Of a DNA stretch of 64,000 bases, positions 2,305 through 44,890 are shown piece by piece. Origin of the DNA: a virus; IMG/VR virus record IMGVR_UViG_3300042566_000678, positions 32,001 through 96,000 of that record. One strand, written 5' to 3'. The position numbers and the translations under genes were made by a program. The notes beneath the pieces are model-generated. The model was not told the DNA's origin. It worked only from the letters and a program-made list of their open reading frames with translations, and did not search any database. Numbering within the stretch: position 1 is the first letter of the stretch; the number at the start of each line of letters is the position of its first letter.

Positions 2305-3606
2305 TTACCTCAACCCACCACCCGGAGCGGCATCTTCAGTTCCACTTCTACCACTACCAGGCCCACCACTACCATTATTACGATTAATTACATCATTAAT
2401 ATCACTTTCTAACGGGATAGTTCTTCCATCTGAACCTTCAGAGCCACCTTGTCCACCACCTGAAGCCACATTTCCAGCAGGTTCTTTATATTGTATAGGC
2501 GGGTCTTTTGGTGGCGATTCTTTCTTTTTCTCTTCTTCGAGTATAACTCTATCAGCTAATTTTGTTGTTTTTCTATTTGTTTGCGTTGGAGCTACACCAG
2601 TTGTATCTTGAATTGATTCCAATTTGGTAATTGAATTATAACCAGTATTTAATAAAGATTGTAAAACAGCGGATGGTTGATATTGACCAACAGCTTCCTT
2701 ATATGTCAATGAGTATTCTCTTTTACGGAGAAACTGCATGTTGTACTCAACTGAATCTTGTAATCTGTTTTCTATAATCAATCTAAATTCTGCGGTAGAT
2801 ATAAAATTATCCAAATCTATTCCACTGGATATTTGCTGTCCGTAATCAGGTACTCCTAATTTAAATTGCTTACCATCTATTTCATATATTACCGATTTAC
2901 GAAAATCTACATATATTTTATTTTTAAAATTAGTATATCCTTCTGCACCACCAAATAAAAAATCTGTGTTTATAACTTCAATATATTTAGGACCAAATGC
3001 AGATATAAAATAATCATCTATTAAAGTTGATATATTTACTTCAACTTTATCTAAAAATTGCTGTATTTCTTTGTAGGATTGACGTAGTTCTAATACATTA
3101 TCCATAAAAGAAAAGTATCTATCTTCTAAATCTGCGTTTATATCTTTATCTAAACCCAATAGTGGCAAAACACGTATCTCTGTTCTTGATGGAGATACTT
3201 CATGTATCCAAACTCTTTTTTTAGGATTTTCGTTACCAACATAGTTTTTAACAAATGAAAAACTTACCCTAAATTCACCATTCGAATATCCAGCTTCAAA
3301 AATTAACTTTTCAACATCAATTTCAAATATTTTTTCACCGGTAATTGTATCTAACGAACTTTTTAAATAAAATGGTAATTTATCTTTGTGAATATACTTA
3401 ACTCTAACACCATTTTGTTGTTCTAATAGGTTGTTTGATATATCATACAAACGAAACTCTATGGCATCATTTTTAGATAATCCAAAATCATCTACATTTT
3501 TTGCAGATGTTTTGAATATATTTAAATCAGTAGGTTTAATTATTTGAGCCGTAGACTCTAACTCCTGATTTATTTTTTCAATATTTTTAAAATCGTTTAT
3601 TGCCAT
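2305..3606 (-). CDS. Putative virion structural protein
   Basis: 433 aa with a Gly-rich tail, coupled to neighbours in the structural block. Confidence 0.55.
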   Translation of the reverse strand: MAINDFKNIEKINQELESTAQIIKPTDLNIFKTSAKNVDDFGLSKNDAIEFRLYDISNNLLEQQNGVRVKYIHKDKLPFYLKSSLDTITGEKIFEIDVEKLIFEAGYSNGEFRVSFSFVKNYVGNENPKKRVWIHEVSPSRTEIRVLPLLGLDKDINADLEDRYFSFMDNVLELRQSYKEIQQFLDKVEVNISTLIDDYFISAFGPKYIEVINTDFLFGGAEGYTNFKNKIYVDFRKSVIYEIDGKQFKLGVPDYGQQISSGIDLDNFISTAEFRLIIENRLQDSVEYNMQFLRKREYSLTYKEAVGQYQPSAVLQSLLNTGYNSITKLESIQDTTGVAPTQTNRKTTKLADRVILEEEKKKESPPKDPPIQYKEPAGNVASGGGQGGSEGSDGRTIPLESDINDVINRNNGSGGPGSGRSGTEDAAPGGGLR

Positions 3607-4619
3607 TATTGATTTGCTAAATTTCTTTTACCCATTGTTTGATTATATACATAATAACAATATTGTTTACCAACATTATGAATAATTTTTCCTATAAAAT
3701 TATCATTGGGTAATTCACCCATCTCATACGCCATATGCTCTGTCCAAGGTTTAACTACCGTATAAATCCATTTGGTATATTTAGGCTTTTCTTTCATAAA
3801 CTTAACTACATCCCTTGCCCACATCATATACCCTAATACTAATTTTGGTTCTCTATCAAACATCATATTACCATAACGCTCATCTGCATTCCAAATATTT
3901 TGTGGTAAATAACCTTGATTATATAATTCGTTACAAATAATTTTCTTTTTCTTCGTATTAGCTAATTGTGCTTGAACTCTAGCAGCTTGTTCAGCCGCCG
4001 CCCTAGCTTGGGCTTGTGAGTTTGAAGTCTGTGCATCTGCTAAAGCTCTTTGTGAATCAGCCAAAGCCGATTGGACTGATGCTAACGAACCACCTGCGGC
4101 TTTTACTAAATTGTTTAGAGTATCTATTTGTTTTAATAGAGCAGTTTTTTGTGCAGTTAAACCAGAGGTTTCAGCTTCTAACCCAGTTCGTTCTGCGTTT
4201 TCCGAAATTGCCTTTTGTATAGCAGTTGATAGACCTGTTCTCAATTCACTAACTATATTATTTTGTGCTGCCAAATTGTTTTCTAAAGTTGCATTTGTAA
4301 CTTTAAGAAAATCATTTGAAACATACAAAGAACTACTATCTGATGTTTTTTGGTTTAATTGTGTGGTTAAATCTTCTATTGTAGTATTTAAATCTGCAAT
4401 TTGTAGATTTAATTCAGCATTTAATTCTACTTCGGCATCGTATATTGGTTTTGGGACCAAATCCAATTTTACCTTTGGAAGTGGTTTAATAAGTTCGGTT
4501 ACTTTAGTATTTACAGATTTTTCTAATTCGTTACTATTAAATTCATCTGTATATAATTTTGTTGTAAAGGTTTCCGTACTTTTGTTTGCTAAATCAATAT
4601 TTTGTCTTTCTATCGCCAT
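3606..4619 (-). CDS. Coiled-coil protein with a C-terminal KIICNELY...GY..WA...PW module
   Basis: Long heptad region, then an abrupt switch to a globular domain of about 110 aa. Confidence 0.55.
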   Translation of the reverse strand: MAIERQNIDLANKSTETFTTKLYTDEFNSNELEKSVNTKVTELIKPLPKVKLDLVPKPIYDAEVELNAELNLQIADLNTTIEDLTTQLNQKTSDSSSLYVSNDFLKVTNATLENNLAAQNNIVSELRTGLSTAIQKAISENAERTGLEAETSGLTAQKTALLKQIDTLNNLVKAAGGSLASVQSALADSQRALADAQTSNSQAQARAAAEQAARVQAQLANTKKKKIICNELYNQGYLPQNIWNADERYGNMMFDREPKLVLGYMMWARDVVKFMKEKPKYTKWIYTVVKPWTEHMAYEMGELPNDNFIGKIIHNVGKQYCYYVYNQTMGKRNLANQ

Positions 4620-20002: not shown

Positions 20003-20329
20003 CTATTTTTTTCTTTTTACTAAATTTTCTTGTGTAATTATTTTGTAAAGTAATTCTACATCTTCCTCTGTTTCTAAAAGCGGGAGTTCCCCGTAATCAA
20101 ATACAGATATTTTGTATTCTCCTTTTTTTACTCCAATAATATTACATTCATCGGAAGCAGTACTTAATAAAGCAGGACGAGCTGACATATCACCATCCCA
20201 ATTATTAGGTAAAGGTAAAATGTAGTAGTGATAAACTTCACCTGTTTCATCATTTTCTTCTTCATGTTTAATAGCGTTCCATTTTTTAAAAGAAGCGTCT
20301 GTAATAGGTGTTTTAGGAAATGTTAGCAT
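20003..20329 (-). CDS. Hypothetical protein, probable paralog of 47938-48213
   Basis: Shared IT...Y.YY.L.L...LL...DE pattern. Confidence 0.5.
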   Translation of the reverse strand: MLTFPKTPITDASFKKWNAIKHEEENDETGEVYHYYILPLPNNWDGDMSARPALLSTASDECNIIGVKKGEYKISVFDYGELPLLETEEDVELLYKIITQENLVKRKK

Positions 20330-29155: not shown

Positions 29156-29187
29156 CAAAGGTAAGTAAAAAAATCCACATTTCCTAA
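29156..29187 (-). promoter_or_regulatory. 32-bp repeated promoter, copy 2
   Basis: 31/32 identical to copies 1 and 3. Confidence 0.8.
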
Positions 29188-29190
29188 TTA

Positions 29191-29550
29191 TTAGTAATTT
29201 ATTTTATAACGAGGATGGGGTACTACAAATTGTTCTATAATATCACCGATACGAAGCATGAAATCACCAGCTGGTTTTCTCAACCAATTACGAGTAACCC
29301 AATGTTCGTATATGATATAGGAGTTTTTATTTAAGAATTGGAGTTTATAGGTCTTATCACCAAGCATCTCTTCATCATATCCTTTTCTATGTAATCTTAT
29401 TTTTAAAAATTGTTTACCTTTATCCTTATCTAAATATATGGAATAATAATCTTCTACTAAATCACTAGCATCAATTATTTCCCAACCATTAAAATCAGCG
29501 TTCTCACTAATTTCAGCCAATCTATCCATAAAGTTTTGTATGGTTAGCAT
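29191..29550 (-). CDS. MLTIxN-family paralog
   Basis: Begins MLTIQNF, encoded by ATGCTAAC. Confidence 0.75.
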   Translation of the reverse strand: MLTIQNFMDRLAEISENADFNGWEIIDASDLVEDYYSIYLDKDKGKQFLKIRLHRKGYDEEMLGDKTYKLQFLNKNSYIIYEHWVTRNWLRKPAGDFMLRIGDIIEQFVVPHPRYKINY

Positions 29551-29960: not shown

Positions 29961-30302
29961 TTAGTTATTCTGTAATTGGTAATCTAATGTATCTACTACG
30001 GATTGGATAAACGAATCTCTATCCTTTAATCCATTGGCACTTATCCCACCACTATCAAACTTCTTTTGATTTAAATAAATTATATACCTATATTGGTTCT
30101 TATAATCCTTATCAAACTCCCTACCAATAAGTATCTTACCTATGTTATTGCCTCCCAACTCAAATCCAATTGAATAGTATTCAGGTTCTAAAATGGTCAA
30201 ATCGGCATCATCGTATAAATGGACACCTTCGCTTACAAGATTAATCATCCACCCATTACAACGTATCCCTTCTAATGACCTAAAGTTTTTAATTGTTAGC
30301 AT
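29961..30302 (-). CDS. MLTIxN-family paralog
   Basis: MLTIKNFRSLEG...LKD. Confidence 0.75.
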   Translation of the reverse strand: MLTIKNFRSLEGIRCNGWMINLVSEGVHLYDDADLTILEPEYYSIGFELGGNNIGKILIGREFDKDYKNQYRYIIYLNQKKFDSGGISANGLKDRDSFIQSVVDTLDYQLQNN

Positions 30303-30303
30303 G

Positions 30304-30627
30304 TTATGTATGTTTATTAACTTGTTTATTAACTATTTTGCATAGAAATTCAATCATCATATTCATATCTTTAATGTAATCGGCATCTACACAAAATCCG
30401 ATTTTTTTATTTTCGTAATAAAAGAAGTATCTCCATTCACCATTACCCAATGATTCTAATCTTCTACTCAAATGAAATTCTTTTGTATCAATAATAGGTG
30501 AATATGCAGGATTCTTTAAATGTATTGCATATGTATCCGCTTTCTCTATGCAAAATTCTACTCCCCACCCTCCGGTAAAATCTAAAAACCTTCCTTCTAA
30601 TTTAGTGTAGTTTTGTATTGTTAGCAT
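30304..30627 (-). CDS. MLTIxN-family paralog
   Basis: MLTIQNYTKLEG...IKD. Confidence 0.75.
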   Translation of the reverse strand: MLTIQNYTKLEGRFLDFTGGWGVEFCIEKADTYAIHLKNPAYSPIIDTKEFHLSRRLESLGNGEWRYFFYYENKKIGFCVDADYIKDMNMMIEFLCKIVNKQVNKHT

Positions 30628-30630
30628 ATC

Positions 30631-31107
30631 TTATTTTTTAATAACAAACCACTCCGTACTACCCCAATTACCACTATACCTATTATGGTATCTATTTCCA
30701 TCACGCCTCATTTCATCAAAATACCTAAACATTTTATTTTTGCTCAAAATCATTTTTTTAGTCCAACCATTAAAAATATCATTACCATATACTCGTTTAA
30801 GTAGTTTAGTAGTATCATCAAACTTTTTTGGAAATGGGAACTCATCATTAACTACATACCTATTCTTAAATGAATACCCACATATACCTTTTATGGACAA
30901 AACACATTTTTCTTCTTCTATTAGCATATCCGTAATAGATGCGTTTTTATCAAATAACTTAAAACTGACTATCTCCAAATTTTTGTAGTTGGGAAATTGC
31001 TTTAATCTTTTGTAAACGTTATAAGAATACCCAATTTTACATAGTTCGTATTTAGGAAACATTGAACCAAACTTTTTATCTCTAATATAATAAACACCAG
31101 TACTCAT
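30631..31107 (-). CDS. GIY-YIG/T5orf172-like endonuclease, probably mobile
   Basis: GVYYI...KIGYS.NV.KRL.Q...E...EWF. Confidence 0.65.
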   Translation of the reverse strand: MSTGVYYIRDKKFGSMFPKYELCKIGYSYNVYKRLKQFPNYKNLEIVSFKLFDKNASITDMLIEEEKCVLSIKGICGYSFKNRYVVNDEFPFPKKFDDTTKLLKRVYGNDIFNGWTKKMILSKNKMFRYFDEMRRDGNRYHNRYSGNWGSTEWFVIKK

Positions 31108-31136
31108 ATCTTATTGTAGTTTTCTATGGTTAGCAT
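31104..31136 (-). pseudogene. 10-codon MLTIxN stub (MLTIENYNKI*)
   Basis: ATG CTA ACC ATA GAA AAC TAC AAT AAG ATA TGA. Its stop overlaps the nuclease ATG. Confidence 0.7.
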
Positions 31137-31462
31137 AATTTTGGTAAAAGTCTAGATGAAATCCATTCTAATAAATGAATAGGGTCTTTTAAGTATTGAC
31201 AATGAATCCTATATCTTCTATTTGTTAATGATAGGCAATCTATTTGGTACTCAAATCCATTATCCATTAGCTGTCTCCATACCCATATATACTCAACCTT
31301 TTTTATGTTATATACTCTATTACCTTCATCTGGCATCAACGAAAGTTTATAGAACTCTGGTTGCTCATCTATGGATGCAACTATCCATTTGGTTATTCCA
31401 CCCGGTGAAAACGATTGGGTTTCCATACCCCTTATCTTATCGTAGTTTTTTATGGTTAGCAT
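31130..31462 (-). CDS. MLTIxN-family paralog
   Basis: MLTIKNYDKIRG...LKD. Confidence 0.75.
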   Translation of the reverse strand: MLTIKNYDKIRGMETQSFSPGGITKWIVASIDEQPEFYKLSLMPDEGNRVYNIKKVEYIWVWRQLMDNGFEYQIDCLSLTNRRYRIHCQYLKDPIHLLEWISSRLLPKLC

Positions 31463-31463
31463 A

Positions 31464-31808
31464 TTACTTATATTCTTCCATAGTTTTAAGCATAAGTGAA
31501 TAGAAATCCACTTTCTTTTTTAGTAGGATTCTTCCAACTTTAGTTTCAACTACAAACCCATCTCTATTTGTACCCGGCGTTGCCAGTTTAGTATCGTAAA
31601 GTCGTAAACGATATATGGATTGTTGGTAACTCGCCGGTACTCTATCCAAAAGAAACTTAAAACGTCGGGGTATCCCATAGGCATTCCAATAGAATGAATA
31701 ATACTCTCCATCACCATTTGGTTTTACAGAAGATAACCCGCCATCGCATAATGTGTACTCACCTATGGTCAGACCTATATCTTTTCTTACGTTTTGTATT
31801 GTTAGCAT
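31464..31808 (-). CDS. MLTIxN-family paralog
   Basis: MLTIQNV. Closest to 32108-32497 (YY.FYW, RFK..L.R, ET.VG). Confidence 0.75.
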   Translation of the reverse strand: MLTIQNVRKDIGLTIGEYTLCDGGLSSVKPNGDGEYYSFYWNAYGIPRRFKFLLDRVPASYQQSIYRLRLYDTKLATPGTNRDGFVVETKVGRILLKKKVDFYSLMLKTMEEYK

Positions 31809-31809
31809 A

Positions 31810-32106
31810 TTAAAAATGAAAAGTAAATTTGTCTAATGCTTTTAGTAGATTGTTCATATCTGCTATATAATCTATGGTTACACTTTGGTTGGTAGCTTTG
31901 CGAGATTCATCGTAGAATCTATATACAAACCTATCACCAATGTGTAAGGTCTTCTTTCTTTGTAGATAAACCTTTATAGATGATAAATGTTTGTGTTCTA
32001 ATTTAATCTCATAGAAATTAGAGTCTTCCCCACAATACTCAACTTTCCAACCCGATTGTCCTATGGGTTTGTCACATAATAGATAATAATTTTGTATCTT
32101 TAGCAT
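31810..32106 (-). CDS. MLTIxN-family paralog
   Basis: MLKIQNY. Closest to 30304-30627 (GW.VE.C.E, DYI.DMN). Confidence 0.75.
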   Translation of the reverse strand: MLKIQNYYLLCDKPIGQSGWKVEYCGEDSNFYEIKLEHKHLSSIKVYLQRKKTLHIGDRFVYRFYDESRKATNQSVTIDYIADMNNLLKALDKFTFHF

Positions 32107-32107
32107 A

Positions 32108-32497
32108 TTACATAAACATTATTATTTTATTTGTCATCCAAGTATAAAATCCAATTCTATCTTTTAGGTGTGTACGTGTACCCACAGATGTTTCATAAAT
32201 TAAACCCTCCCTGCCACTATGAGTGAAACCTTTTTGCTCGTCGTAAATCTTAAAGTTGTATATGGATGTTGTACCTACTATTGGGTTTCTTTCCAAAAAG
32301 CATTTGAACCTACTACGCCAAATCCTGCTCCTTCCATCGTTGTAACTCCAATAGAATGCGTAATAATCATAGTTACCCGAAATACCCGTTACTTCATCAG
32401 GTCGATTGTACAAACCTGCATTTACTAATTTGAATGAACCTATCACCATTCCAACATCTGGGTCTGCACCTTTTGTTTGGTTTTGTATTGTTAGCAT
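32108..32497 (-). CDS. MLTIxN-family paralog
   Basis: MLTIQNQ...LKD. Confidence 0.75.
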   Translation of the reverse strand: MLTIQNQTKGADPDVGMVIGSFKLVNAGLYNRPDEVTGISGNYDYYAFYWSYNDGRSRIWRSRFKCFLERNPIVGTTSIYNFKIYDEQKGFTHSGREGLIYETSVGTRTHLKDRIGFYTWMTNKIIMFM

Positions 32498-32500
32498 ATC

Positions 32501-32848
32501 TTATTTGTGACCAAAGTATTTGTGAAAATCTTCTAATTTAGCTATCATCCAACTATTGAACGCGGCGAATGATAGGAATTGGGATGTACGGACGAAATCA
32601 AAAGCTGGGAGTGTGGTGTGGAATATTTCTCCTACGCCGCTTGTAGCTACCTTAACCGTATAGAATTGTTTCTCCCAATTGAACTCCATTAGGATTACAT
32701 TACGAGAACTAGGATTTTGTGGGTATATCCATACTTGATTACCTATACTACCATCTGCTGATAATTTATATACATAATCACCAGGAAATGGACCTGTTTT
32801 GATTATATGTCCATCAACCTTTTGTGCGAAATTTTGTGGTGCTTTCAT
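32501..32848 (-). CDS. Hypothetical protein, possible distant MLTIxN member
   Basis: MKAPQNFAQKVDG. First gene after promoter copy 3. Confidence 0.5.
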   Translation of the reverse strand: MKAPQNFAQKVDGHIIKTGPFPGDYVYKLSADGSIGNQVWIYPQNPSSRNVILMEFNWEKQFYTVKVATSGVGEIFHTTLPAFDFVRTSQFLSFAAFNSWMIAKLEDFHKYFGHK

Positions 32849-32874
32849 ATGATTTATATTTAACTGATGTTTAA

Positions 32875-32906
32875 CAAAGGTAAGTAAAAAAATCCACAAT
32901 TCCTAA
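32875..32906 (-). promoter_or_regulatory. 32-bp repeated promoter, copy 3
   Basis: Identical to 26371-26402. Confidence 0.8.
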
Positions 32907-32934
32907 TTTTTACTTAATTATTTAATATCCAAAC

Positions 32935-36563: not shown

Positions 36564-37013
36564 TTAGTGAACGAAAGGGTGTTGGTTAGAATAGAGGTGT
36601 TTTCTTACCTTAACTACGGTTCCCGTTGATATTCCCTTCGATTTTCTTACCTTAACAATAGTTTTGGATGAAGCACCTAAAACCTCTACTATCTTTCTAA
36701 CGGAATATCCTTTCTCTAATAGGGTAATTATTTCTTTGGTTATGGGTTTATTCATAAAAGTTTCGGTAGATTCCATACTACCTACTCTTCTACCTGCTAC
36801 TCCCCCATTTTCAATCCATTTTTCCCTACCTAATTTTATTAACCTTTTCCACTCATTAGGGTTCTTATGTATCCCCACATCTTTACCATGCGCTTTACCA
36901 TGGCATACATTACATAGGGGTATAGTTTTAGTACCACCCAATGATTTAGGTATAATATGGTGTTGATGTATATGTTCACCACTACCACACTCAAAACATA
37001 TTTTAGTATCCAT
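36564..37013 (-). CDS. HNH endonuclease with a C-terminal HTH
   Basis: CFECG...HHIIP...GG....LC..CH...H, then GYSVRKI...LG.S..TI.KV. Confidence 0.8.
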   Translation of the reverse strand: MDTKICFECGSGEHIHQHHIIPKSLGGTKTIPLCNVCHGKAHGKDVGIHKNPNEWKRLIKLGREKWIENGGVAGRRVGSMESTETFMNKPITKEIITLLEKGYSVRKIVEVLGASSKTIVKVRKSKGISTGTVVKVRKHLYSNQHPFVH

Positions 37014-37015
37014 AT

Positions 37016-37369
37016 CTATTGTATTACTTGTCTCCCACCACTATGTATTTGATTAAATACCCTTCTTATATCCTTAAAATCTTCTACTCTTAAAAATTTA
37101 GTACATCCTCTTGCAAGGGGTACGTTTACATTCTTACAATAGATTTTTACATATTCATGTCCAGCGAAATCATTTGGGTCATACATTTGTTGTGTTTCCT
37201 TATAGATTTGTACTAATATCTTTATATCCTTTTGTTCCTTATCCTTTAAGACGTACTCATATATACCCCCAATTGGGTTATCTCCTACATAATGTATTTT
37301 CCAACTCGTTAAACTCTTTTCTACGAAATTTACTAGCCTATTAGGATTTTCTATGTTTATCCTTTTCAT
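37016..37369 (-). CDS. MLTIxN-family paralog
   Basis: MKRINIENPNRL...W...Y...FKD. Confidence 0.6.
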   Translation of the reverse strand: MKRINIENPNRLVNFVEKSLTSWKIHYVGDNPIGGIYEYVLKDKEQKDIKILVQIYKETQQMYDPNDFAGHEYVKIYCKNVNVPLARGCTKFLRVEDFKDIRRVFNQIHSGGRQVIQ

Positions 37370-37725
37370 ATTATGTAACTATGAATTATTATATCCGTAA
37401 AATTTCCTAATGCTAATCCAAATTGATTCATATCCCTCAATACCCTACTACTCACCAATTGGGTTTCAAATCGGTTTGTATATGCACCTATCTCCCAACT
37501 CAACTCCCAATACCTTTCTTCAAAGTAAACACCTCTCGGTGGTTTTCTATCCAATACAATCCTTATCTCTTTTGAATCTACAAGAAATGTGGAATGGATT
37601 TGTAATTCAAACACATAGGTATTATTATTCATCCAATACACATCTTTTACTCTACATGTCCAATGGTGTGATTGTATAGGTACTTTCCTATCTACCATCT
37701 TATGTATGTTCTCTATCGTTAGCAT
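37366..37725 (-). CDS. MLTIxN-family paralog
   Basis: MLTIENIHKM...W...YVF.L...LDR...LRD. Confidence 0.75.
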   Translation of the reverse strand: MLTIENIHKMVDRKVPIQSHHWTCRVKDVYWMNNNTYVFELQIHSTFLVDSKEIRIVLDRKPPRGVYFEERYWELSWEIGAYTNRFETQLVSSRVLRDMNQFGLALGNFTDIIIHSYII

Positions 37726-43591: not shown

Positions 43592-44208
43592 TCACAAATA
43601 AATCTTATCTTTCTTTCTATTGAATCCTTTTCAATCCTAACAAATAATTTTGATGTTGGTATCTCTTTTGTTATATGAGCCACAGCAGTAATGGTTATTG
43701 TATCTCCCTTCATATAGTATATTGGAGCAACCATAGTATTCACACTACCATCCGATGATGATGGATACGATGAACCATTTACCGTTGGAATTAATGAATT
43801 TGATTGAGACTTAAATGTACCCAATTCAGCTGTTGTCAGTTTTCCTGTAAATGTGTTAAAATAGGTTTTATATACTACGAATAAATTAGTTTTATTATTT
43901 AAAATCCAATAATGAGAACTTTTCCATTCTATTTTACAATCAACGGGTGATGGAATTGGATTTGGTTCACCATTCCACAAAAATTTTCCGGTGATACGGC
44001 TAAATGTTTGAAAAGTATTTTCTGATAATTTTAGATGATAGTATCCATTTATATCCTTTGGTAAACTCCTAGTACCAAATCTATTTAAAGCAGAATCCAA
44101 TTGGAATGTAAAATTGTATGCAGGTGGTTTAGGTACTATATATTGCGGCTCTTCGTAGCAAGATATTAATCCTAATAGTATCGGTAAAAATAATAGTAAC
44201 TTTTTCAT
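43588..44208 (-). CDS. Putative lipoprotein
   Basis: Lipobox LISC after the signal sequence. Confidence 0.65.
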   Translation of the reverse strand: MKKLLLFLPILLGLISCYEEPQYIVPKPPAYNFTFQLDSALNRFGTRSLPKDINGYYHLKLSENTFQTFSRITGKFLWNGEPNPIPSPVDCKIEWKSSHYWILNNKTNLFVVYKTYFNTFTGKLTTAELGTFKSQSNSLIPTVNGSSYPSSSDGSVNTMVAPIYYMKGDTITITAVAHITKEIPTSKLFVRIEKDSIERKIRFICE

Positions 44209-44552
44209 CGTTCATTTACAAAATCATCTAGCATCTCATTTAATGCCTTTATAATATTATCACTACTCTCTAATGCTTTCTTTTTTATACCCAAATCCTT
44301 TCGTTTAACCCGCCCATCATCAAAACGTTGTATGATATGGGTGTCATAAACTGGTGTTTTATCGTTTGGAAACTTTGGGTCTACATCGGTTCTTTTGTTT
44401 CTAGCTATTCCTATGTATATTGGTACATTATGAAACTCAAATGCATACTCTACGAATATCCTATATGCCAATTCGTTTTCTTCGATGCTTTGTATGTACA
44501 ACCTACCTTCGAAATACCCATTCAGTTTATCAAAATTACTTATGGTTAGCAT
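44205..44552 (-). CDS. MLTIxN-family paralog
   Basis: MLTISNFDKLNG...YRI...IAR...Y. Confidence 0.75.
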   Translation of the reverse strand: MLTISNFDKLNGYFEGRLYIQSIEENELAYRIFVEYAFEFHNVPIYIGIARNKRTDVDPKFPNDKTPVYDTHIIQRFDDGRVKRKDLGIKKKALESSDNIIKALNEMLDDFVNER

Positions 44553-44890
44553 TACAATTCCACCCCCCTTATAATTTCTTCAACACATTTTAATAGTATA
44601 TACCTATTTTCTATATGCTTTGTTCCTACAAACATTTCGTCCAAAGATACCCAATTATTTGATGCTTGCCATAGTTTTGTTTCTAAATGGTATCCGTGTC
44701 CATCAACTTTGTTTCTATTGAGTGATACCTCTATAACAGGAAATTCAGATGGATTTGGTTTATTATAGAAAGCTAATACATATGCTTCATCGGAAGAATA
44801 TGTTTCCGTTGCTGTCCACATACCAAAATCAAAATAAACAGTATTAAGTGGTTCTTCTAATTTATGAAAGTTCTTTATTGTTAGAGTCAT
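44552..44890 (-). CDS. MLTIxN-family paralog
   Basis: MTLTIKNFHKLE...W...YVL...LNR...YHL. Confidence 0.75.
   Translation of the reverse strand: MTLTIKNFHKLEEPLNTVYFDFGMWTATETYSSDEAYVLAFYNKPNPSEFPVIEVSLNRNKVDGHGYHLETKLWQASNNWVSLDEMFVGTKHIENRYILLKCVEEIIRGVEL

Follow-up and report, generated by a model that had tools for sequence, protein, structure and literature searches.

The uniform start of a family of small virus genes is probably best explained by three ordinary forces, namely selection on the encoded peptide, avoidance of the hexamer GTTAAC and a codon bias at the 5' ends of genes. According to this explanation, the shared start, referred to below as the head, acts as a passive joint for recombination, and a selfish-looking nuclease gene was joined to it by microhomology. 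As judged from their sequences, the genes of this family are a co-oriented row of diverged paralogs of about 110 amino acids with the shared N-terminus (M)LTIxN.

The stretch of DNA that we analysed (64,000 nucleotides, hereafter the window) comprises bases 32001-96000 of a single virus record of 148,235 bp with a G+C content of 33%. About 204 of the 212 long ORFs of this record are located on the minus strand. The genes of the paralog row are short, closely spaced and encoded by the minus strand; they lie upstream of genes for a kinase and an Rnl1-type RNA ligase, and the intergenic spacing ranges from -7 to +3 nt at all junctions of the row. Among 50,697 phage records, the best matches of the RNA ligase showed less than 40% identity, and neither the paralog array (blastn) nor the nuclease (tblastn) had a match. 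Judging from these searches, none of the cultured phages is close to the record. Syntenic arrays of uncultured relatives, cited here by L numbers, were retrieved by a scan with the RNA ligase, and their unit content varies. Short non-coding stretches that flank the main array (window 32872-32912 and 29157-29205) match several places in the relatives with 83-93% identity. Just upstream of the array, a gene with the start MKAPQNF (window 32501-32848, minus strand) represents a second small family, of which L029 has three tandem copies (3299-4282).

ATGCTAAC heads eight ORFs of 107-129 amino acids, which start at 29550, 30302, 30627, 31462, 31808, 32497, 37725 and 44552. It also begins a short stub at 31136, and the start at 32106 reads ATGCTAAAG (MLKIQN). 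All ten ML starts listed in the sequence-only reading were confirmed to read ATG CTA A on the minus strand, and the MTL copy with CTAAC that it reported at 44890 indeed reads ATG ACT CTA ACA. All units are encoded by the minus strand. They include 29191..29550 (head MLTIQNFMDRLA), 29961..30302 (MLTIKNFRSLEG), 31464..31808 (ATGCTAACAATACAAAAC) and 31810..32106 (ATGCTAAAGATACAAAAT), as well as dispersed units at 37366..37725 (MLTIENIHKM), 44205..44552 (MLTISNFDKL) and 44552..44890 (MTLTIKN). There are 12 copies of ATGCTAAC in the window as compared to 2.0 expected, a number that none of 100 shuffles reached, and nine of these copies, located on the minus strand, begin either an MLTIxN ORF or the stub. 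Two further ORFs start with ATGCTAA, one at window 20003-20329 (minus strand, MLTFPK...) and one at genome 12272-12931 (minus strand, MLKFLQ...); neither is in the family alignment. Around 70 of 120 metagenomic homologs of the units begin with MLTIxN.

No match was found for any of the units in Pfam or PHROGs. In the structure model of a unit (pLDDT 91), an antiparallel sheet is framed by a short helix at the N-terminus and another helix at the C-terminus, and the units are confidently predicted to share this small alpha/beta fold. A Foldseek search with the model against the PDB and BFVD gave no significant match. The best VIA Z-score was 5.7, to RWD, UBC and type III chaperone-like folds, and is non-specific. 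Our guess would be that the units are small protein-binding early proteins. The arrays of the relatives showed two peculiarities. A 173-aa gene that does not belong to the family and has no Pfam assignment lies within the arrays of L015 (3660-4181) and L026 (6539-7060). It stops 1 nt ahead of a head, and the next unit differs between L015 and L026. In L001, the ortholog of the 30302 unit (4110-4565) has an in-frame N-terminal extension of 39 codons (4110-4226), which begins with MPTIHN and contains a Zn-ribbon-like CxxC...CxxC pattern. This extension looks like a CxxC...CxxC mini-domain; the idea that it is a footprint of the nuclease was rejected, as its local alignment to the array was no better than that of shuffles.

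To characterise the head, 33 distinct heads from the window's genome and five relatives were pooled. Ahead of the ATG, the information content was about 0.04-0.47 bit, and it rose sharply at the ATG itself. Within the head, codon positions 1 and 2 had high values and the third positions of codons 3-5 had low ones, resulting in a 3-nt periodicity. The onset at the ATG and this codon periodicity indicate selection at the protein level. A conserved upstream element in the motif, such as a promoter or ribosome site, was rejected in view of the near-zero upstream information. Among 17 ortholog pairs, the synonymous differences amounted to 22 of 72 (31%) in head codons 2-6 versus 281 of 1050 (27%) in the bodies. 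Synonymous sites change as fast in the head as in the bodies, so that there is no special conservation of the head at the DNA level. The earlier claim that the start is conserved as DNA is thus not supported, in view of its onset at the ATG, its codon periodicity and its synonymous rate, and also of the origin of its CTA codon in GTTAAC avoidance, which is documented below.

The codon usage at the 5' ends of genes accounts for part of the remaining uniformity. Genome-wide, wobble A makes up 52% in codons 2-8 versus 39% in the bodies, and T is disfavoured there; ATA accounts for 54% versus 36%, and ACT for 19% versus 33%. In the heads, the Leu wobble is A in 31 of 33 cases and the Asn wobble is C in 27 of 33, which is more uniform than codon usage predicts. 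The Thr and Ile wobbles vary freely, with ACT at Thr not occurring in this genome and occurring once among the 33 heads. AAC represents 35% genome-wide without a 5' bias. The uniform AAC thus lies outside this bias and may be due to selection for accuracy at this nearly invariant Asn. The likeness of the heads in DNA would therefore largely result from peptide selection, GTTAAC avoidance and the 5' codon bias.

With respect to leucine, CTA makes up 13.2% and TTA 51.6% of the codons used genome-wide. The sequence ATG-TTA-ACN contains GTTAAC, an HpaI-type palindrome that is present at one site in 148 kb as compared to 31-48 expected; this sole site, at genome base 147296, lies in a G+C-rich stretch near the end of the record. 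CTA is the usual codon of the head because TTA at this position would create the avoided GTTAAC. The only common synonymous neighbour of CTA is this forbidden TTA, and the codon is therefore effectively frozen. Outside the family heads, the in-frame context G|Leu|AC was filled by TTA in 0 of 15 cases, where about 8 were expected, by CTA in 6 and by TTG in 5. Leu at codon 2 outside the family is limited to six ORFs, three of which are doubtful plus-strand ORFs. Six-base palindromes are purged widely from the genome: 17 of them have zero copies, including GAATTC, GATATC, CTATAG and TCATGA, and GATC is absent. CTTAAG, ATCGAT and GTTAAC have one copy each, and CAATTG is over-represented (141 copies).

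Among family-carrying relatives, 0, 2 and 0 GTTAAC sites were found in records of 111, 188 and 207 kb, respectively. Avoidance is relaxed in one family-bearing relative with 18 sites in 176 kb, and it is this relative that has a ATGTTAAC head. In a relative that lacks the family, 27 sites were counted in 100 kb. Exceptions at the head Leu codon among the relatives were TTG twice, CTG once and TTA once. CTA has also been kept in three heads where TTA would be harmless, namely the MLK start at 32106, the MTL start at 44890 and a non-family MLK gene. GTTAAC avoidance is thus the main cause of CTA, but not the cause of every case. As in other phages that avoid restriction sites, the palindrome is purged genome-wide and the codon that creates it is never used in that context. 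The difference is that here one codon has become fixed in the heads of an entire gene family, thereby mimicking a conserved DNA motif.

An alternative view of these data is that the head is a translation-initiation element at the RNA level, which would provide an A/C-rich, U-poor and unstructured start with a favoured codon 2 for leader-poor, coupled cistrons, and in which the TAA within ATGCTAA would terminate an upstream cistron that overlaps with it. We regard this as unlikely. The enrichment of wobble A and depletion of T in codons 2-8, and the rarity of ACT at Thr, are what such an element would call for, but this is a codon bias of a general kind and not a discrete element. Moreover, the Asn AAC has no genome-wide 5' bias, and the Thr and Ile wobbles are free to vary. 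Likewise, the junctions of the row are all close enough for coupling, and the TAA of the head is the real stop of the upstream unit at 31136, L029 5285, L029 6624 and L015 4494, but the embedded TAA serves only few of the junctions.

The explanation by peptide selection, GTTAAC avoidance and 5' bias leaves room for the head to act in recombination, and it was proposed previously that the start of roughly 29 nt is a recombination or homing target. This proposal was supported for the gain, loss and shuffling of units at the head, as evidenced by the breakpoints in L015/L026, L081, L029 and L001, but not for the head as a target of the nuclease. When the relatives were compared for breakpoints inside the motif, these were located in the head for L015/L026 and within a few nt of heads for L001 and L029. 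L015 and L026, with 91-96% DNA identity in the flanks, differ by a two-unit indel of 627 bp and a one-unit indel of 292 bp, and the homologies that flank these indels show overlaps of 11 and 22 nt, which coincide exactly with the head (ATGCTAAC...). In L029, the homology block for the 30627 unit extends from the ATG to a point 16 nt inside the next head, and this 30627-type unit sits after a 32106-type unit without the nuclease. In L001, 138 bp replace 1.8 kb that hold the stub and the nuclease gene together with the three units ahead of them (32106, 31808 and 31462) and unit 30627 after them, and homology returns 3 nt ahead of the 30302 ATG. Lastly, in L081 the 3' end of the nuclease gene and a TAAGAT spacer lead directly into a 30302-type unit, unit 30627 being missing from ATG to ATG. 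Read at the sequence level, these breakpoints provide strong support for the head as a joint. They are not proof, as selection for intact genes would bias breakpoints likewise. The 8-22 nt of head identity are the sole DNA similarity among the units, and the head would therefore act passively as a crossover point. Unequal or short-homology recombination at the head could then delete, duplicate and re-order whole units.

Among described systems, these events most resemble the shuffling of PeSLs in hyperplastic regions of T4-type phages, where short repeats also recur between small non-essential genes (PMC2839356, PMC4122927). In both systems, indels and replacements between close relatives break in the repeats, as was observed here at the heads of L015 versus L026 and of L081, L029 and L001 versus the window. 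However, PeSLs are non-coding promoter-terminator (stem-loop) cassettes between genes (PMC2839356, PMC4122927). The repeat described here represents the first 8-22 nt of coding sequence, which are selected as protein, and the DNA upstream of it is not conserved; no non-coding promoter and stem-loop repeat is present, the head being wholly coding with codon periodicity. The row is also comparable to tandem multigene families with unequal crossing-over, in that whole units are won or lost via short stretches of identity between paralogs. It differs from these families in that the units have only about 20% amino-acid identity and are alike only in the head, so that crossovers would be focused at the gene start.

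The nuclease gene within the row (30631..31107, minus strand, 158 aa) is a stand-alone T5orf172/GIY-YIG-like gene and a candidate free-standing homing endonuclease. Its Pfam matches are sub-threshold, with 17.3 bits for T5orf172 (PF10544; cutoff 20, E-value 0.007) and 18.4 bits for MUG113 (cutoff 22.3), and the same sub-threshold matches were obtained for 3-4 close homologs. A profile search of 1.8 billion representatives showed that only 13 proteins match the profile of the 158-aa protein. One relative linked through the profile, P0013, passes the T5orf172 cutoff with 24.6 bits. Homologs include P0001 with 91% identity (9 contigs) and P0002 with 66% identity (on a 31-kb contig). Across 11 sequences with identities down to 27%, the residues Y6 (GVY), K24-I-G26-Y27 (KIGYS) and E152 (NWGSTEWF) are invariant, and R34 is conserved in at least 90%. 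The protein thus has the GIY-like and YIG-like strands, the Arg and the C-terminal Glu of the GIY-YIG catalytic motif. By analogy with the proteins compared in PMC10448857, Y6, KIGY, R34 and E152 would have catalytic roles. The AF2 model of the protein has a pLDDT of 86. It showed no significant match to the PDB with Foldseek; in the VIA wide structural search, GIY-YIG domains made up 8 of the top 9 rows with Z-scores of 5.3-3.2, every Z-score being below 6. These rows include the N-terminal domain of plant GRXS16 (5.3), I-TevI (4.3), UvrC (3.4), Eco29kI (3.4), Slx1 (3.3), PD-T4-3 (3.3) and HIGLE (3.2). No DNA-binding domain was found by Pfam in the protein or its close homologs, and no longer fused forms were found among its relatives. 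A helical insertion of about 40 residues (residues ~85-125) is restricted to the closest clade.

The nuclease gene is single-copy in this genome, and no copy is present in the records of L001, L015, L026, L029 and L021, of which three have a completeness of at least 92%. A scan of viral_contigs with the nuclease and its alignment found nothing, and the metagenome scan with the nuclease returned L081 only. In L081 (1336-1772), the nuclease is 88-90% identical and represents a 5'-truncated pseudogene that is fused via the 13-nt CAAAAGATTAAAG to codon 11 of an MKAPQNF gene. The ortholog of the 29961..30302 unit follows directly after this remnant with a ATGCTGAC head. The gene is thus present sporadically among syntenic close relatives. 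That the gene is intact in one genome, missing from others and decaying in another is in keeping with the life cycle of a selfish gene that can be dispensed with, its nuclease activity and mobility being putative.

Phage T5orf172 proteins are treated as homing endonucleases, most of which carry Zn-finger DNA-binding domains (PMC10448857). The present gene shares several features with free-standing GIY-YIG/T5orf172 homing genes such as the T4 Seg genes and the T5orf172 genes of ICP1 and T5 (PMC10448857). It is a small nuclease ORF between phage genes that has kept the GIY, YIG, Arg and Glu motifs, it is sporadic among close relatives with one decayed copy, and it is located at a boundary of gene-content change. 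It differs from these genes in having no Zn-finger or other DNA-binding domain, in its sub-threshold Pfam matches, and in its location among non-essential hypervariable paralogs rather than beside essential genes. A second free-standing nuclease gene is present at window 36564-37013 (minus strand). It encodes 149 aa with sub-threshold HNH and HTH_23/HTH_7 matches and begins 2 nt after the family unit 37369-37016 (junction TAG AT ATG). This gene was not found in the records of the five relatives.

The nuclease gene is located between the upstream unit 31130..31462 (minus strand, 110 aa, MLTIKNYDKI) and the downstream unit 30304..30627 (minus strand, 107 aa, MLTIQNYTKLEG), the ortholog of which in L029 (69%) has no nuclease ahead of it. 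As the sequence-only reading had stated, a stub lies directly before the nuclease gene and the intact paralog that starts at 30627 follows 3 nt after it. The stub (31104..31136, minus strand, ATGCTAACCATAGAAAACTACAATAAGATATGA) has 10 codons that encode MLTIENYNKI*. The upstream unit terminates at the TAA within the ATGCTAA of the stub, and the TGA of the stub overlaps the ATG of the nuclease gene (ATGA). Since the junctions of the row are all spaced by -7 to +3 nt, this ATGA overlap probably couples the translation of the nuclease to that of the stub, as with its neighbours. The stub is identical in 28 of 30 positions to the upstream 31462 head, in 27 of 30 to the ortholog L015_4183 and in 25 of 30 to the downstream head. 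Judging from these identities, it is a truncated 31462-type head. The nuclease had been described as bracketed by imperfect direct repeats. The 29-mers quoted in support of this are identical in 24 of 29 positions, but the stub is nearer to the upstream head than to the downstream head.

A second and exact repeat register, the 11-nt AATAAGATATG with 11 of 11 identities, flanks the nuclease gene. Its left copy (31105..31115, minus strand) corresponds to stub codons 8-10 (AAT AAG ATA) plus TG and ends in the nuclease ATG. The right copy (30625..30635, minus strand) comprises the nuclease stop TAA, GAT and the ATG of the 30627 unit, which is a canonical stop-GAT-start junction. The genome contains five copies of AATAAGATATG as compared to 0.18 expected, at window 33188, 32505, 31115, 30635 and 84793 (minus strand). 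Four of them are gene junctions of the type stop TAA-GAT-ATG, and the fifth is the joint between stub and nuclease. The same AAATAAGATATG junction precedes the paralog unit at 32108..32497 (minus strand). At head codons 8-10, (A/G)AT AAG ATA is native, and AAT AAG ATA is present in the head of L021_1787. Most simply, the left joint would have arisen by a microhomology event between codons 8-10 of a 31462-type head and a stop-GAT-ATG junction AATAAGATATG before the nuclease gene, the order of events being our inference. Such an event would have left the 10-codon stub with a stop overlapping the nuclease start. It may have involved the deletion of a duplicate unit, or the nuclease gene may have come in with a head already attached. 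L081 shows an event of this kind in its 13-nt fusion.

It has to be considered whether the nuclease is mobile at all. It might be a domesticated or accessory early gene, for example one for the degradation of host or competitor DNA, in which case the stub would be the scar of a deleted duplicate of a 31462-type unit. A stand-alone nuclease domain of 158 aa with no recognisable DNA-binding domain, in an early-gene-like row with coupled translation, would be in keeping with this idea, as would the mere 13 proteins that match its profile. Nonetheless, we consider this improbable, because the absence of the gene from five relatives and its 5'-truncated pseudogene in L081 rather suit a dispensable selfish gene, and because phage T5orf172 proteins are taken as homing endonucleases (PMC10448857).

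It is even less probable that the head of about 29 nt is a dedicated DNA site, be it one that the T5orf172-like nuclease cleaves or homes to or one at which cassettes attach, and that units are gained, lost and shuffled as a result of breaks made by the nuclease. The nuclease gene does lie between two head copies, but nine intact heads have been kept in this genome, one of them 28/30 identical to the stub, and a nuclease that cuts heads would cut its own genome. Similarly, the unit indels among relatives do break in the head, but those between L015 and L026 occurred with no nuclease copy in either record (L015 being about 58% complete). The Leu and Asn wobbles are unusually uniform, as would be expected for a DNA site, but codon periodicity, the lack of conservation upstream of the ATG and synonymous sites that evolve at the rate of the bodies are not. 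Furthermore, the second (HNH) nuclease gene also abuts family units, and in other phages the boundaries of recombination are marked by such genes (PMC10448857), but in the 158-aa protein itself no DNA-binding domain was found. Equally remote in our view is that a constraint on the DNA itself keeps the wobbles of Leu and Asn constant, giving a fixed ATGCTAAC...AAC linker for the swapping of diversifying early-gene modules; if true, breaks made by the T5orf172-like nuclease and the HNH nuclease (36564-37013) would stimulate shuffling, and the head would be a coding-sequence analogue of the PeSL cassettes.

Altogether, the components of the locus are of known kinds: a free-standing gene of the GIY-YIG type in a hyperplastic region, a tandem family under unequal recombination, and restriction avoidance that shapes codons. 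The rare stand-alone T5orf172-like nuclease, observed in an intact, an absent and a decayed state, is useful for the study of phage genome plasticity and involves no new mechanism. The heads illustrate that a start motif that looks conserved as DNA can come from ordinary forces, namely peptide selection, restriction-site avoidance and 5' codon bias, and they provide a clean and checkable case in which a codon has been frozen throughout a gene family by the avoidance of a restriction site. The breakpoints in uncultured relatives, resolved to the base, indicate that a hypervariable row of phage genes has been remodelled unit by unit at the start that its members share.
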